From positions 1 to 38,386 of the forward strand of contig CAZZBC010000001.1 of the NCBI GenBank assembly GCA_964652175.1: 38,386 nucleotides of DNA, read 5' to 3'. The position numbers and the translations under genes were made by a program. Below are positions 2,085-12,757 of the stretch, in pieces (within the stretch, counting starts at the first letter, position 1; every line of letters begins with the position of its first letter). The notes under the pieces are model-generated. The model saw nothing but the letters and a program-made list of their open reading frames with translations. It did not search any database and was not told where the DNA came from. The DNA is from an uncultured Gammaproteobacteria bacterium. Lineage in GTDB: Bacteria; Patescibacteriota; Patescibacteriia; Patescibacteriales; JAKAJF01.

Positions 2085-2108
2085 ACAGCGATAAAACGCT
2101 TCTAAATA

Positions 2109-2141
2109 ACAAAAATCTCCCTGAACGGGAGATTTTTGTTA
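2109..2141 (+). terminator. Rho-independent terminator after the secreted-protein gene
   Basis: Stem aaaaatctccc (2111-2121) / gggagattttt (2127-2137), loop tgaac, T-run 2133-2140, 25 nt after the stop codon. Confidence 0.7.
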
Positions 2142-2160
2142 TTTGTATATTTATTTTTTA

Positions 2161-2244
2161 CCCCCTTTGTATAAAGGGGGTTAGGGGGATTTTTCTCTTT
2201 TCCACTTTAATAAAACCCCCTTCATCCCCCTTACTACAAGGGGG
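2161..2244. repeat. C5/G5 hairpin module, full inverted pair (copy A)
   Basis: Left arm 2161-2194 is ccccctttgtataaagggggttagggggatttt. Right arm 2212-2244, aaaacccccttcatcccccttactacaaggggg, is its approximate reverse complement. Same family as 10808-10891, 12724-12757 and 35271-35302. Confidence 0.85.
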
Positions 2245-4269: not shown

Positions 4270-5052
4270 TTAATCAAGCGATTTTATTTGCTCTTCAAAC
4301 TCCTCCAATTTTTGGTTTTCCGGATTAACTTCTTTCAGTTTTTCATACGCCTCGCGAGCGCCTGTTTTATCCTTCTTTATTATACTAATTTCAAGTTTTG
4401 TGTCAAGATAACGGGGGTTATTTGGCTCAAGGTCCAGGGCTTTATTAATATTATTTATCGCCCCGCCAAAATCGCCTTGAGCTTCGCAAATGGAAGCTGT
4501 GCTAAAATAAATCTCGCTATCGTCTCCGGCTAACTTTAAAACATGTTTAAGGGTTTGTTTGGCATTGTTATAATTTTTATCCTTAAAATAAAGACGGCCC
4601 AACATTTTAAAAGCTTCTACATTCTTATGATCCAGGCTGATAATTTCAATAAGCTTTTTTTCCGCCGCTTTTGATTCGTCTCGCGCGCTTAGCTCCTCCG
4701 CTTCCTTGAATAACTGCTCTATTTTCTGCTTGGCTGAAACTGAACCGCCATCGCTTAAAATAATTTCCTTTTTGTATCTCTCTTTTAATTCGTGGAGCTT
4801 ATTATGTATTAACTTAAACAAACTGTTAATCGCCTCTCCCGCCGGCCTTATCGCCCTCGTTATTTTGGAGCGCCACTTTATAAATCCTCTTTTTAACCGC
4901 TCGCCGATAATCCGCTCCTTGAATCTGCCTTCTTTTTCGGCGGGCATATTCCTAATGTCTATATTGGCTAAAACCGGAAACTTTCTCACAATAACAATAA
5001 TAATAACGCTTAAGCTTATTAAAATTAAAATTATCGGGATTATGTCGTACAT
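4270..5052 (-). CDS. Membrane-anchored TPR-repeat protein
   Basis: N-terminal TM helix MYDIIPIILILISLSVIIIVIV. C-terminal TPR-like repeats (AFKMLGRLYFKDKNYNNAKQTLKHVLKL; FSTASICEAQGDFGGAINNINKALDLEPNN). Confidence 0.75.
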   Translation of the reverse strand: MYDIIPIILILISLSVIIIVIVRKFPVLANIDIRNMPAEKEGRFKERIIGERLKRGFIKWRSKITRAIRPAGEAINSLFKLIHNKLHELKERYKKEIILSDGGSVSAKQKIEQLFKEAEELSARDESKAAEKKLIEIISLDHKNVEAFKMLGRLYFKDKNYNNAKQTLKHVLKLAGDDSEIYFSTASICEAQGDFGGAINNINKALDLEPNNPRYLDTKLEISIIKKDKTGAREAYEKLKEVNPENQKLEEFEEQIKSLD

Positions 5053-5060
5053 ATTGGATG

Positions 5061-5936
5061 CTATATTTCCGCCTCGCTTATATTAATGCGGTTGGCGCTG
5101 CCGAACAGCCTCATTTTATCATAAACAACTTCTTCAACCGCCGCGATAGTCGGTTTTAACAAATTCCGCGGATCCGTTTCTTTTTTATTTTTCGCGCAAA
5201 CCCTTATAAGGGTTTGGCAAAAGGCGATTTTTATGTCGCTGCCGATATTTATTATATTGACTCCCGCCCTAATCGCTTTTTTTATCTTAAAATCGCTAAC
5301 GCCGGAACCGCCGTGCAAAACAAAAGGCAATTTTGTTTTTGCTTTTATTTTCTTAAGCAAATCAAATCGTATGTCTTCGTTTTTATAAACGCCGTGCGCC
5401 GTTCCGACAGCCGCCGCGATGATATTAACCCCCGTTGCTTGAACAAATTTAACCACGTCATCCAGGTTGGCCAAAGGGATATTTTTTATTTTTCCGCTTA
5501 ACCGGCCATGGCCGCCCGTTATAATCCCCACTTCTCCCTGCACCCAAACCTTTCTTGGGCGGGCTACCTCAATCACTTGCTTGGTTAAAATTATATTTTC
5601 ATCCAAAGGCAAGTCTGAGGCGTCAATGTGCACGGAAGTAAAACCGGCATTTATACATTCAAAAACCGACTTTAAGCTTTTGCCGTGGTCCAAATGCAGG
5701 GCGACCGGAACTTTGGCGGCGATATTTTTCGCCGCCGTGGAAACCAAATGGGTAATCGGCTTAAGCCCCATGTACTTGATGGTGCTTTCCGAAACCTGAA
5801 TAATAACCGGCGACTTGGCGCGGACCGCCGCCTGGGCTACTCCTAAAAGCGATTCAATGTTATGGATATTGAAAGCGCCGACGGCGTACTTTTTCTTTTC
5901 CGCGTCTTTGATTATGTCCTTTATGTGAACAAGCAT
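5061..5936 (-). CDS. fba: Class II fructose/tagatose-bisphosphate aldolase
   Basis: YAVGAFNIHNIE, VALHLDHG, FTSVHIDAS and LVLHGGSG-type motifs (VLHGGSGV here); 291 aa. Confidence 0.9.
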   Translation of the reverse strand: MLVHIKDIIKDAEKKKYAVGAFNIHNIESLLGVAQAAVRAKSPVIIQVSESTIKYMGLKPITHLVSTAAKNIAAKVPVALHLDHGKSLKSVFECINAGFTSVHIDASDLPLDENIILTKQVIEVARPRKVWVQGEVGIITGGHGRLSGKIKNIPLANLDDVVKFVQATGVNIIAAAVGTAHGVYKNEDIRFDLLKKIKAKTKLPFVLHGGSGVSDFKIKKAIRAGVNIINIGSDIKIAFCQTLIRVCAKNKKETDPRNLLKPTIAAVEEVVYDKMRLFGSANRINISEAEI

Positions 5937-10201: not shown

Positions 10202-10789
10202 TCATTTATCAAAAGAATAAGCAATAAAAAAAAATAAAGAAATAAAAGCGGCGAGGACTAAAACGAGAGAGCCGTAAAAATAGGCCCGTAAAATCTTGCT
10301 CTTAGCGCCCGTTATGATTTCCCTTTTTGTGTCATAAAGATAATAGGAAAAAATCGCGGCCGCGATGAAAATGGCCGTTGCCGCCCTTAAAATGAATTTT
10401 AAAGTAAGTTCGCCCTCCAAAAAATTATAAACAATGGCGATAAACCAGCCGATCATTACCACCGAGGAAACGAATAAAATAAAATGGGTAAGCCATTTTC
10501 TCACTCCCGCTTCCTTGTCAAGCTTGCCGGAAAGCAAATTTTTATTAATCTGCCAGGTCATAATGTAATAAATCGGGGCGGCGATGATAATAGCCGAAAT
10601 GGCGAATTTCATGGCTCCCTCATCAAACATGCCAGGCAAAGTTCCGGCCGCATCAATAATTTTTTTGTTAATAATCTGAAAAATAATCATGCCCGTGGAC
10701 ATAGCCATGAATATAAGCGCCACTAAAGAAAGCATATAAAAAAACGCGTACTTGGCCGCATTGTTTTGCGGAATTGTTTGTTGTTCCAT
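10202..10789 (-). CDS. Multi-pass membrane protein, DUF5671-like
   Basis: 195 aa with 5-6 predicted TM helices. The N-terminus AKYAFFYMLSLVALIFMAMSTGMIIFQIINK resembles the CPR DUF5671 family as I recall it (not searched). Confidence 0.7.
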   Translation of the reverse strand: MEQQTIPQNNAAKYAFFYMLSLVALIFMAMSTGMIIFQIINKKIIDAAGTLPGMFDEGAMKFAISAIIIAAPIYYIMTWQINKNLLSGKLDKEAGVRKWLTHFILFVSSVVMIGWFIAIVYNFLEGELTLKFILRAATAIFIAAAIFSYYLYDTKREIITGAKSKILRAYFYGSLVLVLAAFISLFFFIAYSFDK

Positions 10790-10807
10790 ATGTTTTATAA
10801 ATTACCG

Positions 10808-10891
10808 CCCCCTTTGTATAAAGGGGGTTGGGGGATTTTTGTGTTTTTCACATTCTTAAACCCCCTTTATCCCCCTTATACAAGGGGGGGG
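10808..10891. repeat. C5/G5 hairpin module, full inverted pair (copy B)
   Basis: Left arm 10808-10840 ccccctttgtataaagggggttgggggattttt. Right arm 10858-10891 aaaccccctttatcccccttatacaagggggggg. Lies between the aspS stop and the membrane-protein start. Confidence 0.85.
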
Positions 10892-10905: not shown

Positions 10906-12714
10906 TTAAGAAGATTTTATCGCCTTAATATTTAATTCCTTCAAATGCTTTTCTGGCACGTCGCCGGGAGAACCCATGAGCAAATCGCGACCATGCCCGT
11001 CTTTCGGAAAAGCGTAGATATCGCGGATGGAATCCCAGTCATTCAACACCATTAAAATCCGGTCAATGCCCGGCGCGTTGCCTCCGTGCGGCGGCGCGCC
11101 GTATTCAAAAGCACGAATCATGCCGCCAAATTTGGCGTCCACTTCTGCTTTTGTGTAACCCACGATTTCAAACGCCTTATACATAATTTCAGGGTCGTGA
11201 TTTCTGATGGCGCCGCTTGAAACTTCATAGCCGTTTAAAATCATGTCGTATTGGTAAGCCAGAATGTCCAGCGGCTCTTTTTCGGCAAGCGCTTTAAGCC
11301 CGCCCTGCGGCATGGAAAAAGGATTGTGCGCGAAATCAATTTTGCCGTCGTCAAGTTCGGACCAGTCATACATTGGAAAATCAACCACCCAGCACCAAGC
11401 GGCCTTTTTGTTGTCTTTAAGGCCGAGTTTTTTTCCGCATTCATTGCGCACTGCTCCAAGCGCGTGACACACGGTCCGCCACTCATCCGCGCCGAAAAAT
11501 ATAATGTCGCCCGTTTTCGCGCCGACTTTTTTTACAATATCATTGGCCAATTTATCACCCAAAAATTTTACGATCGGCGATTGTAATTCTCCTCTCTCTT
11601 TAATTATGATGTAAGCCAGCCCTTTTGCGCCTTTGGCTTTGGCGATTTCCGTCAGCTCGTCAATTTCCTTGCGGCTGAATTTGGCGCCGGCGTCAACTTT
11701 CAAAGCGTGAACAGCGCCGCCCTTGGCAACAGCATCGCTAAACACGCTAAATCCGCATCCTTTAACCACATCCGTGATCGGCGTTATTTCCATATTGAAT
11801 CTCAAATCCGGTTTGTCGGTTCCATATTTTTCCATAGCTTCTCTCCATGGTATTTTTTTAAAAGCGCCATTTTTATCCAAACCGACAATTTTCTTGTCGG
11901 AAAACTTCTTTGTCGCTTGAATCCAAAGCGGCTCCATTATATTAAAGATGTCTTGTTGTTCCACAAAACTCATTTCCATGTCCAGTTGGTAAAACTCGCC
12001 GTAATGCCGGTCCTCGCGCGGATCCTCATCGCGAAAACAAGGCGCGATTTGAAAATAACGGTCGCATCCTCCCACCATCAAAAGCTGCTTGAACTGCTGA
12101 GGCGCTTGGGGCAGAGCGTAAAATTTTCCCGGGAAATACCGCGACGGCACTAGGAAATCGCGCGCGCCCTCCGGAGATGAATTGGCTAAAATGGGCGTTT
12201 GCACTTCTACAAATTCCTGTTTATGAAAATACTCTCTTATGTAAGCGATGAATTCATCTTTGACTTTAAGCATTTTCTGCAGTTTGTCGCGGCGCAAATC
12301 AAGGAAACGATATTTCAGCCGTATCTCCTCGTGCGCTTCAGCCGCCTTTTCTTCGTTTATCTCAAACGGCGGCGTTTTTGATTTGTTTAATATTTCAAGA
12401 TCATCACATTCAACTTCAATCTCGCCGGTCGCGAGCTTGGGATTGACCATCTCCTTCGGCCGCGCGACCACCTTGCCTTTTATTTTTATCACCCATTCAT
12501 GCCTTAATGTGTCCGCCAATTTATATGCTGCTTCCATCTGTGCTGAGCTTGTCGAAGCAGGCCTGAAGGTAATCTGCGTCAAGCCGTAGCGGTCGCGCAG
12601 GTCAATAAAAATAATCCCGCCATGGTCGCGACGGCTATGTACCCAGCCGGCAAGTTCCACGGTATGGGCTACATGCCTTTTATTCAATTCTCCGCATGTG
12701 TGCGTGCGCAACAT
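10906..12714 (-). CDS. aspS: Aspartyl-tRNA synthetase
   Basis: 602 aa. MLRTHTCGELN N-terminus with OB fold, class II motifs (FRDEDPREDRH, GGNAPGIDRI), bacterial insertion domain. Confidence 0.95.
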   Translation of the reverse strand: MLRTHTCGELNKRHVAHTVELAGWVHSRRDHGGIIFIDLRDRYGLTQITFRPASTSSAQMEAAYKLADTLRHEWVIKIKGKVVARPKEMVNPKLATGEIEVECDDLEILNKSKTPPFEINEEKAAEAHEEIRLKYRFLDLRRDKLQKMLKVKDEFIAYIREYFHKQEFVEVQTPILANSSPEGARDFLVPSRYFPGKFYALPQAPQQFKQLLMVGGCDRYFQIAPCFRDEDPREDRHYGEFYQLDMEMSFVEQQDIFNIMEPLWIQATKKFSDKKIVGLDKNGAFKKIPWREAMEKYGTDKPDLRFNMEITPITDVVKGCGFSVFSDAVAKGGAVHALKVDAGAKFSRKEIDELTEIAKAKGAKGLAYIIIKERGELQSPIVKFLGDKLANDIVKKVGAKTGDIIFFGADEWRTVCHALGAVRNECGKKLGLKDNKKAAWCWVVDFPMYDWSELDDGKIDFAHNPFSMPQGGLKALAEKEPLDILAYQYDMILNGYEVSSGAIRNHDPEIMYKAFEIVGYTKAEVDAKFGGMIRAFEYGAPPHGGNAPGIDRILMVLNDWDSIRDIYAFPKDGHGRDLLMGSPGDVPEKHLKELNIKAIKSS

Positions 12715-12723
12715 ACAAATGTG

Positions 12724-12757
12724 CCCCCTTTACAAAAGGGGGGATAAAGGGGGATTT
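12724..12757 (-). repeat. C5/G5 hairpin module, single arm (copy C) in the aspS leader
   Basis: ccccctttacaaaaggggggataaagggggattt. On the minus strand, AAATCCCCC-TTTAT-CCCCCCTTTT-GT-AAAGGGGG ends 9 nt before the aspS ATG. Confidence 0.8.

Follow-up and report, generated by a model that had tools for sequence, protein, structure and literature searches.

The window analyzed here, a 38,386-nt stretch that forms contig C1 of a genome from the candidate phyla radiation (CPR), holds a pair of inverted hairpin arms between two convergent genes at 2161-2244. A first-pass annotation of the window had counted six such arms, which we call C5T3 units, and had suggested that the pair between the convergent genes could act as a bidirectional terminator. 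The locus therefore raises the question of whether the units are signals belonging to the genes that they border or repeats that have spread on their own account. Our analysis favors the second answer. We consider it likely that the units are a dispersed selfish repeat of the BoxC/PIT/TMECO kind, that their inverted pairs are gene-less remnants of a cassette, and that their solo copies lie mostly in frame inside genes. The assembly of the source genome, G000, totals 885,609 bp in 73 contigs at 42.5% G+C; G002, G006, G017, and similar labels denote its relatives, L-numbers denote loci, and C-numbers denote contigs.

A three-part unit in two subtypes

The strict unit pattern (CCCCCTTTNNNNAAAGGGGG, at most two mismatches) matched six times at four plus-strand sites of the window (2161, 10808, 12723/4, and 35270/1), compared to 0.04 matches in dinucleotide shuffles, and a looser expression added the minus-strand arms at 2216-2244 and 10861-10891. 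All six arms counted in the first pass were thereby recovered, as inverted pairs at 2161-2244 (pair A) and 10808-10891 (pair B) and as single arms at 12724-12757 and 35271-35302 (Table 1). One 33-nt unit reads, in full, CCCCCTTTGTATAAAGGGGGTTAGGGGGATTTT. At gathering thresholds, Rfam reported three tRNAs in the whole window and no match at the units.

The left arm of a pair, or L type, reads CCCCCTTT-GTAT-AAAGGGGG-TT(A)-GGGGG-ATTT. The right arm, or R type, reads CCCCCTT-GTAT/GTAGT-AAGGGGG-ATNAA-GGGGG-TTT(A) on the minus strand, with a 5-nt second spacer, ATNAA. A perfect C5T3/A3G5 stem had been ascribed to every arm; the right-hand arms of the pairs do not have it and constitute a distinct subtype with a 7-bp CCCCCTT/AAGGGGG stem. 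In single-stranded DNA, each unit is predicted to form a hairpin of −8 to −9 kcal/mol (z-scores of −2.3 to −3.5). The L unit of pair A reaches −9.3 kcal/mol, with its third segment unpaired in the fold. ViennaRNA folding, which considers Watson-Crick pairs only, also left the third segment unpaired in the solo units. A long-range helix of ~30 bp between paired arms, proposed in the first pass, is the predicted minimum-energy fold of pair B, whereas local hairpins are preferred in pair A.

The third segment mirrors the purine arm

Across the genome, units are built in one order, in which a pyrimidine arm (CCCCCTTT) is followed by a purine arm (AAAGGGGG) and then by a third segment (GGGGGATT), the mirror of the purine arm. 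The consensus is CCCCCTT[T], a 3- to 4-nt loop, [A]AAGGGGG, a 2- to 5-nt spacer, and GGGGG[A]TT. Among 113 units, the four bases after the third G-run were A in 91, T in 102, T in 106, and T in 84. The third segment thus mirrors the purine arm with T or A opposite A, which is the antiparallel purine-motif rule for triplexes (G.G:C, A.A:T, and T.A:T). G-run lengths in the purine arm and the third strand were (5,5) in 55 units and (6,6) in 22 and were correlated (Spearman 0.48, p = 6e-8), whereas the agreement between C-run and G-run lengths was weaker (rho of 0.22). Purine arms with two A's were followed by TTT tails and those with three A's by ATTT tails. At least seven contiguous permitted triplets were present in 80 of the 113 units, and full-length motifs of class II (the order just described) numbered 103 in G000 and 0 in a shuffled genome.

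The third G5 run had been seen in the first pass as an alternative pairing partner. A Watson-Crick partner for C5 would not need the ATT(T) tail, so the run makes better sense as a reverse-Hoogsteen third strand, which fits the mirror symmetry, the conserved tail, and the covariation. Because purine-motif triplexes do not form in RNA (PMC4666352), the third-strand constraint would act on DNA. From these sequence patterns, we predict that C5T3 units fold as an intrastrand triplex in single-stranded DNA, in which the third segment would lie antiparallel on the hairpin through the three permitted triplets. G-quadruplex or i-motif folding was considered and rejected, since it needs four runs and one strand of a unit offers just two, either of G or of C.

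Units are dispersed and lie mostly in frame inside genes

Over its 885,609 bp, G000 was found by pattern mapping to contain 113 oriented units along with 122 core hairpins, so the modules are dispersed genome-wide and are not a local duplication. A reversed, noncomplemented control pattern gave no match in G000, and the alternative palindrome GGGGGAAA..TTTCCCCC occurred only four times. A third G- or C-run flanked 106 of the 122 core hairpins on one or both sides, and several of the other 16 were visibly decayed. Solo units were the commonest form.

Genes were called with a simple home-made codon-usage caller of open reading frames (ORFs), which returned 826 genes and a coding density of 86%. 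Long, high-scoring ORFs contained 74 of the 113 units (65%; 30 sense and 44 antisense, in 42 genes) and 80 of the 122 core hairpins. The genes concerned include tsaD, metG, leuS, polA, murD, and murG; four genes hold four units each, and tsaD, metG, and murG hold up to four. That most surviving insertions are intragenic follows from the high coding density of the genome. Relative to that density, units are in fact depleted in coding DNA (65% versus 86%, p = 2e-8), which fits weak purifying selection against mildly harmful insertions rather than confinement to spacers.

Inside genes, the reading frame was preserved. Stops were found in 0 of 74 used frames, compared to 73 of 148 off-frames. The encoded peptides are (I/S/N)PPxP(L/F)xxKG(G/A) for antisense units and (T/P/S)P(L/F)xKGGxG(G/D) for sense units. 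TsaD (C44:5351-6655) illustrates the effect on protein length, with 434 aa compared to 327 to 343 aa in solved homologues. Its alignment with the Thermotoga enzyme opens gaps exactly at the units (residues 21 to 31, ~88 to 101, and 317 to 327) as well as at other repeats, and the units were absent from all 17 Patescibacteria TsaD proteins compared (52 to 69% identity). In MetRS, 28 residues that correspond to two head-to-head units stand in place of 7 residues of the Thermus thermophilus enzyme. An AlphaFold2 model of TsaD (predicted template modeling score of 0.78) assigned a predicted local distance difference test (pLDDT) score below 50 to residues 24 to 30 and 322 to 329, which fall within the first and last units. 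Residues 81 to 100, which hold the middle unit, had an average pLDDT of 52 to 59, and all three unit segments were modeled as coil between confident secondary-structure elements. These observations suggest that intragenic units are translated as extra loops. Only stop-free insertions of a whole number of codons would persist inside genes, and they would be read as P-P/L/F-x-K-G-G loops at permissive surface positions.

Other repeat families also lie in frame in housekeeping genes of G000 (C21:3169-5760, C28:4004-7054, C70:131-1357, C44:5351-6655, and C7 [L003:1-813]). Their peptides include HRHSEAE(G/D)RRIP; IHPGKYS(A/G)KAVFT, which occurs twice in PolA; HPA(A/V)GG(T/I)K(F/I)KNN, in PolA and MurG; SPLPAPSNDLG(H/R)KGD(K/E)GGLN; and the product of an A/T-rich repeat, ISNFKFLISKQIPISKSQ, in TsaD and KsgA.

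Occupied and empty sites in related genomes

The number of pattern matches varied sharply among genomes, from 105 in G000 to between 0 and 54 in 40 relatives, with a patchy distribution. Because the protein collection contained no strain-level relatives of G000 (the best TsaD match was 58% identical), we compared the congeners G030 and G006 instead; the G030 assembly is 80% complete. G030 had 54 matches, overlaps counted, and G006 had 3. At orthologous sites with 71 to 81% DNA identity, three units of G030 are cleanly missing from G006, which has gaps of 36, 36, and 33 nt in their place. Two further sites had diverged sequence and no clean gap, and two loci were unusable since the G006 contigs end at the site. 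A loop of MurD contains a unit in sense orientation in G000 (VPLDKGGQGG) and in antisense orientation in G030 (IPPTPLIKGVG) and is empty in G006, so that this loop was hit independently at least twice.

Most of the ~45 distinct G030 copies share an identical core, CCCCCTTGATAAAGGGGGTTGGGGG, and one G030 gene holds three tandem units of ~39 nt (GGAAAATCCCCCAACCCCCTTTATCAAG(G/A)GGGCATTAAT; e.g., L197, G030:C44:1840-2570). The shared core and the tandem units suggest a recent burst or homogenization. No individual unit was seen to be conserved at orthologous sites across genera. A candidate site in rarA, shared by G002 and G000, was rejected, as the units lie at opposite ends of the gene.

The inverted pairs derive from a DUF559 cassette

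At least 120 stretches from GTDB species representatives contain the exact motif, in which 25 bases are specified, compared to ~0.004 matches expected by chance. The matches listed include Desulfobacterota, Nitrospirota, Omnitrophota, Ignavibacteria, Gammaproteobacteria, Planctomycetota, Chloroflexota, Patescibacteria, and others, at 30 to 70% G+C. The C5T3 element is not specific to the CPR, and the remark in the first pass that similar repeats exist in other phyla is borne out by the exact motif itself. The motif also occurs in 16 viral or proviral contigs of IMG/VR (L170 to L185).

To characterize the neighbors of the units, all ORFs within 1.2 kb of a unit were clustered in the listed loci. 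The only family that recurred in five of these loci was a DUF559 protein of ~120 aa, encoded exactly between two units (L018, L020, L053, L078, and L113), which matches PF04480 (109 bits) and PDB entry 3HRL, an "endonuclease-like protein." The full-length element is a cassette of ~460 bp in which an R unit and an L unit, inverted and with their tails inward, surround a DUF559 (Vsr-like, PD-(D/E)XK) gene; the ATG of the nuclease follows the G5 run of the R unit at a distance of 12 nt. Cassettes from two relatives are given in Table 1.

Nine L+R pairs of G000, both window pairs and seven others, align end to end with the G017 cassette. They have 19 to 33 nt in place of its 401-nt interior and keep tttaa..ATG/GTG at one end of that interior and ..ataaat at the other. 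The window pairs, at 84 nt, retain both ends and ~25 nt of interior, a start-codon remnant included. The interior of pair B matches the leader and start codon of the cassette (tttaaagaacATG) and its last interior bases (…ataaat); the interior of pair A was compared with the G017:C47 cassette and the eight other G000 pairs. On the minus strand, pair B reads tttaagaATGtg..caaaaat and the pair on C21 reads tttaaaaacGTGaagaaaatataaat, and the cassette reads tttaaagaacATGaat..[369 nt]..gaagaaatataaat. Alignment from end to end around a short interior identifies the pairs as deletion derivatives in the sense of MITEs (miniature inverted-repeat transposable elements), and internal deletion of the ~460-bp cassette would account for the gene-less 84-nt pairs.

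Among the relatives, 21 of 41 had DUF559 genes, and a full-length triplex motif was found at 13 of the 24 flanks examined. These flanks comprise eight different purine arms of 7 to 12 nt, each with a full-length mirror third strand (for example, AAGGGGAGGA/AGGAGGGGTT, AGGAGAGGGAGG/GGAGGGTGAGGT, and AAGGAGGGGG/GGGGGTGGTT). Such covariation across families is, at the level of sequence, stronger evidence for the third-strand rule than the patterns within G000, and it offers comparative evidence that the three-part fold, or its recognition, may be under selection. In a tree of 16 DUF559 proteins, C5T3-flanked nucleases clustered irrespective of host phylum. The protein of the CPR relative G002 grouped with that of an unrelated metagenome-assembled genome (99/97 support), and the labels required two changes, a number reached by 3 of 500 shuffles.

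Possible means of spread and alternative explanations

How the units moved is a matter on which we can offer proposals of differing strength. It is possible, and we put it forward tentatively, that the DUF559 nuclease acts on the folded ends and that repair or template switching then copies the unit. Somewhat more speculative is the broader idea that DUF559 nucleases and triplex-forming terminal repeats make up an unrecognized, pan-bacterial class of mobile element, in which the nuclease would recognize the folded end and gene-less pairs and solo ends would spread like MITEs. Were this so, new surface loops in the essential proteins of ultracompact CPR genomes would owe much to the DUF559/triplex-end element. 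In the selfish-repeat reading itself, intergenic copies are passengers, with any use of their G-runs as ribosome-binding sites secondary.

Several points weigh against the selfish-repeat reading as a whole or against its parts. No DUF559 gene or fragment was detected in G000 with the Pfam model or with tblastn at E ≤ 10, none was detected in repeat-rich G030 (80% complete), and many DUF559-bearing genomes lack the C5T3 motif. The nuclease may hence be a passenger rather than the mover, and it is not needed to keep the units. At the three empty sites, neither a target-site duplication nor a target consensus could be read because the flanks, at 71 to 81% identity, are too diverged. The purine motif requires single-stranded DNA, and the covariation within G000 could partly reflect descent of subfamilies rather than independent compensation. 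ORF and gene assignments come from our home-made caller, and the translation of the inserts is suggested by their intact frames.

Some of these points would be expected if the hairpins were old, immobile insertions at permissive sites, homogenized by gene conversion or structure-driven repair, with DUF559 an occasional passenger. G000 and G030 have many units and no nuclease, most G030 copies share one core, the same protein loops are occupied in different lineages, and some G006 sites hold a different sequence of similar length in place of a unit. We nevertheless regard this account as unlikely. Against it stand the clean gaps of 33 to 36 nt at empty congener sites and the opposite orientations in MurD. 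Nuclease lineages track repeat type across phyla, and the deletion series from cassette to pair suggests that the pairs came from the cassette.

Mobilization in trans by an HUH tyrosine (Y1) transposase, as in REP/REPIN families, was also considered. Y1 enzymes act on hairpins in single-stranded DNA, and REPINs are inverted doublets of hairpin repeats, both of which would suit the units. G000 encodes three PF01797 proteins; the candidate enzymes are a 217-aa protein (C7:21024-21677) resembling the REP-associated tyrosine transposases (RAYTs) and the IS200-like TnpA proteins on C10 and C38. Of the six relatives that hold 10 or more units, four have the RAYT-like protein. However, no Y1 gene of G000, G030, G034, or other relatives is flanked by units; other palindromes are found there. 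G011 (22 units) and G003 (10 units) have no RAYT-like protein, whereas 12 genomes with few or no units do; the RAYT model match was 25.9 bits against a cutoff of 80 bits; and the pairs derive from a DUF559 cassette rather than a Y1 element. On balance, a Y1-driven family seems to us improbable.

The regulatory role raised by pair A is more doubtful still. Regulatory units would be bidirectional terminators, attenuators, mRNA-stabilizing hairpins, or switches that sequester a ribosome-binding site. The position of pair A between convergent genes is in keeping with such a role, as are the stability of the hairpins, the several intergenic units that lie 8 to 22 nt before a start codon, where AAAGGGGG could act as or mask a Shine-Dalgarno sequence, and the G5 run 12 nt before the nuclease ATG in the cassette. 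The 8- to 22-nt spacing is partly circular, though, because the start-codon choice of the ORF caller rewarded upstream G-runs. Enrichment at 5' untranslated regions or 3' ends, which the first pass had suggested as a check, did not appear, as the 39 intergenic units face starts and stops about equally, and genome-wide the motif has no tie to gene ends. Nor does termination in both directions find support, given that most units (65%) lie inside genes, essential ones among them, in both orientations. A consensus terminator scan of 1950-2400 flagged only the separate hairpin at 2103-2145, and an intrinsic terminator is no match for the units, whose T-run begins 9 to 10 nt past the stem. The third strand, moreover, obeys a rule that applies to DNA only, and the related PIT/BoxC elements had no promoter or terminator activity in published tests (PMC4666352).

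A benefit to the host at the DNA level, through pausing of replication or recombination, nucleoid-protein binding, or protein-loop variation, is recommended by the link between TMECO loci and genome rearrangement in Escherichia coli (PMC4666352) and by clustering in particular genes (the four with four units each), but it is the least credible of the alternatives in view of the patchy, all-or-none distribution among close relatives, the decayed copies, the depletion in coding DNA expected of mildly harmful insertions, and the lack of individual units conserved at orthologous sites across genera.

Comparison with known repeat families

The G/C-rich intrastrand triplex motifs BoxC/PIT/TMECO, which occur in E. 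coli and other bacteria (Hoyne et al. 2000; Holder et al. 2015), offer the first comparison for a selfish repeat with this anatomy. Holder et al. (2015, PMC4666352) give their formula as CCCTCNCCC-N3-6-GGGNGAGGG-N3-GGGNGAGGG, with pyrimidine arm, purine arm, and third strand following one another as in class II. TMECO copies have second loops of TTA or CCG, form inverted pairs of type A with type B, are strictly intergenic in E. coli K-12, differ greatly between strains, and show no promoter or terminator activity (PMC4666352). C5T3 units share the class II order, the spacer of ~3 nt (TTA is a common second spacer here as well), the mirror third strand, and dispersal in tens to hundreds of copies with sharp differences between close relatives. 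They likewise form inverted pairs of two subtypes, of which there are nine here, with an L spacer of 2 to 4 nt and the R spacer ATNAA. They differ in their C5T2-3/A2-3G5 stem and G5(A)TT third strand, as opposed to CCCTCNCCC/GGGNGAGGG, and do not match the TMECO consensus; the stem is 7 to 8 nt rather than 9; and two-thirds of the copies are in frame inside genes rather than always intergenic as in K-12. The C5T3 repeat is a sister family of TMECO, a new C5T3-stemmed variant of the intrastrand-triplex class. The literature searched, on motif strings, on in-frame palindromes in CPR genomes, and on DUF559, contained no account of a C5T3 repeat family and no link of BoxC/PIT/TMECO to a DUF559 cassette.

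Solo units are unusually frequent as in-frame insertions in essential genes of G000, and in this they resemble the Rickettsia palindromic elements (RPEs) of Ogata et al. (2000, 2002), which, according to the summary in PMC10969869, are palindromic and lie in frame in housekeeping genes. Both are palindromic selfish repeats in a reduced genome that sit in frame in unrelated genes, at places that the protein fold can accommodate, and are tolerated as an extra peptide. RPEs of families 1 to 10, however, are ~100 to 150 bp long, lack a triplex-type third strand, and are confined to Rickettsia. C5T3 units add 33 to 36 nt (11 to 12 codons) and are spread over many phyla, and their full-length form encodes a nuclease.

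With REP/REPIN repeats, C5T3 units have in common that they are short hairpins in many copies, single or as inverted doublets. They depart from them in that no RAYT gene is flanked by units (in G000 and five relatives), the repeats are not extragenic, and the full-length relative encodes a PD-(D/E)XK nuclease rather than an HUH enzyme. REP hairpins are said by Di Nocera et al. (2013) to adjoin a conserved GTAG or CGTC tag. C5T3 units have no such tag; their 5' flank consensus is TT(G/A), and GTAG is only one of many second-spacer variants. Like MITEs, which are nonautonomous elements that arise from insertion sequences by deletion, the pairs of 75 to 90 nt retain, of a longer coding element, its two inverted end units plus a few bases from between them. 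Unlike MITEs, they come from a parent whose product is a small Vsr-like nuclease not known to act as a transposase, and single ends (solo units) outnumber pairs; a target-site duplication was not evident at the three clean empty sites, whose flanks are 71 to 81% identical.

These comparisons bear on an old problem, as we know of neither a function nor a partner protein assigned to BoxC/PIT/TMECO since the 1990s. The C5T3 repeat provides a second, sequence-distinct family with the same third-strand mirror rule, and the series from nuclease cassette to gene-less pair to solo unit is a testable candidate origin for such repeats. It also indicates that repeats shape protein length and loops in a CPR genome, as RPEs do in Rickettsia. 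For annotation, the units explain length variation among CPR orthologues and warn against calling such elements terminators or riboswitch-like RNAs.

Coordinates and further observations

Table 1 lists the features of the window together with the two cassettes. The gene context of pair A was as first described, with the stop of a plus-strand gene at 2084, the terminator hairpin at 2103-2145, and the HU stop at 2257. This long hairpin of canonical form, which lies between the secreted-protein gene and pair A, is likely the real terminator of the convergent gene pair.

TABLE 1 Units, pair interiors, and neighboring hairpin in the window, with two DUF559 cassettes from relatives
Feature	Position	Strand	Composition	Context or basis
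Terminator-like hairpin	2103..2145	+	Intrinsic type, A/T-run flanks	Separate from repeat; consensus terminator scan
L-type unit, pair A	2161..2192	+	Five parts, listed below	Sequence, pattern match, mirror/triplet analysis
Pyrimidine arm	2161-2168	+	CCCCCTTT	Part of pair A L unit
Loop	2169-2172	+	GTAT	Part of pair A L unit
Purine arm	2173-2180	+	AAAGGGGG	Part of pair A L unit
Spacer	2181-2183	+	TTA	Part of pair A L unit
Third strand	2184-2192	+	GGGGGATTT	Part of pair A L unit
Interior of pair A	2193..2211			Aligns with first and last few bases of DUF559 cassette interior
R-type unit, pair A	2212..2244	-	CCCCCTTGTAGTAAGGGGG-ATGAA-GGGGG-TTTT	
L-type unit, pair B	10808..10838	+	CCCCCTTTGTATAAAGGGGG-TT-GGGGGATTT	18 nt upstream of start (10789) of downstream minus-strand membrane-protein gene
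Interior of pair B	10839..10856		Minus strand including tails of both units: tttaagaATGtgaaaaacacaaaaat	
R-type unit, pair B	10857..10891	-	CCCCCCCCTTGTATAAGGGGG-ATAAA-GGGGG-TTTAA	14 nt past aspS stop (10906)
Solo unit	12724..12757	+	CCCCCTTTACAAAAGGGGGG-ATAAA-GGGGGATTT	9 nt upstream of minus-strand aspS start (12714)
Solo unit	35271..35302	+	CCCCCTTTAACAAAGGGGG-CACA-GGGGGATTT	42 nt upstream of minus-strand rpsL start (35228)
C5T3 cassette, G002:C58	Units 1853-1877, 2249-2274	+, -	DUF559 gene 1895-2215	Same family as G000
C5T3 cassette, G017:C47	R unit 9007, L unit 9436		DUF559 pseudogene between units	

About a dozen intergenic units end 8 to 22 nt before a start codon on the opposite strand, which places AAAGGGGG at Shine-Dalgarno distance in the mRNA. 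Such units are found at 10789-10808 and 12714-12724 of the window and, elsewhere in G000, at C2:820, C16:2902, C19:7182, C21:11603, C29:2835, C49:53, C50:1706, and C64:3158. Head-to-head doublets, in which the hairpins face each other across an 11- to 15-nt spacer (e.g., atatttcttcttg), number five and all lie inside genes (C5:5788/5830, C9:1552/1593, C20:1037/1080, C36:6445/6484, and C70:292/332). Tail-to-tail pairs, in contrast, are almost all intergenic.

Palindromes of other designs accompany the Y1 genes. The RAYT-like protein (YHIYNRG..HYHLL..YPWSSY; L003:1309-1962) is followed by a different palindrome, GAAGCTTCCCAGAAGCTTAGCTTCTGGGAAGCTTC. Homologues of it are present in 15 of 40 relatives, and after each of them come palindromes of its own. 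The IS200-like TnpA genes (NF033573) lie at C38:9037-9486 and C10:3365-3802; the former is preceded, at C38:8974-9000, by GGGGGGTTGCAGGGGGATATCCCCCTGC, a G-run plus a G5/C5 hairpin unlike the C5T3 unit in design. Finally, there are C5T3 units inside genes that have a true TMECO-like unit, CCCCCTCTCCTTAATAAGGAGAGGGTAGGGGTGAG (peptide LPPLLNKERVGVRS), immediately on their 3' side; the motif scan counted four such copies in G000, with sites at C5:~5750-5790 and at C21:~4760-4797 and ~5270-5307.

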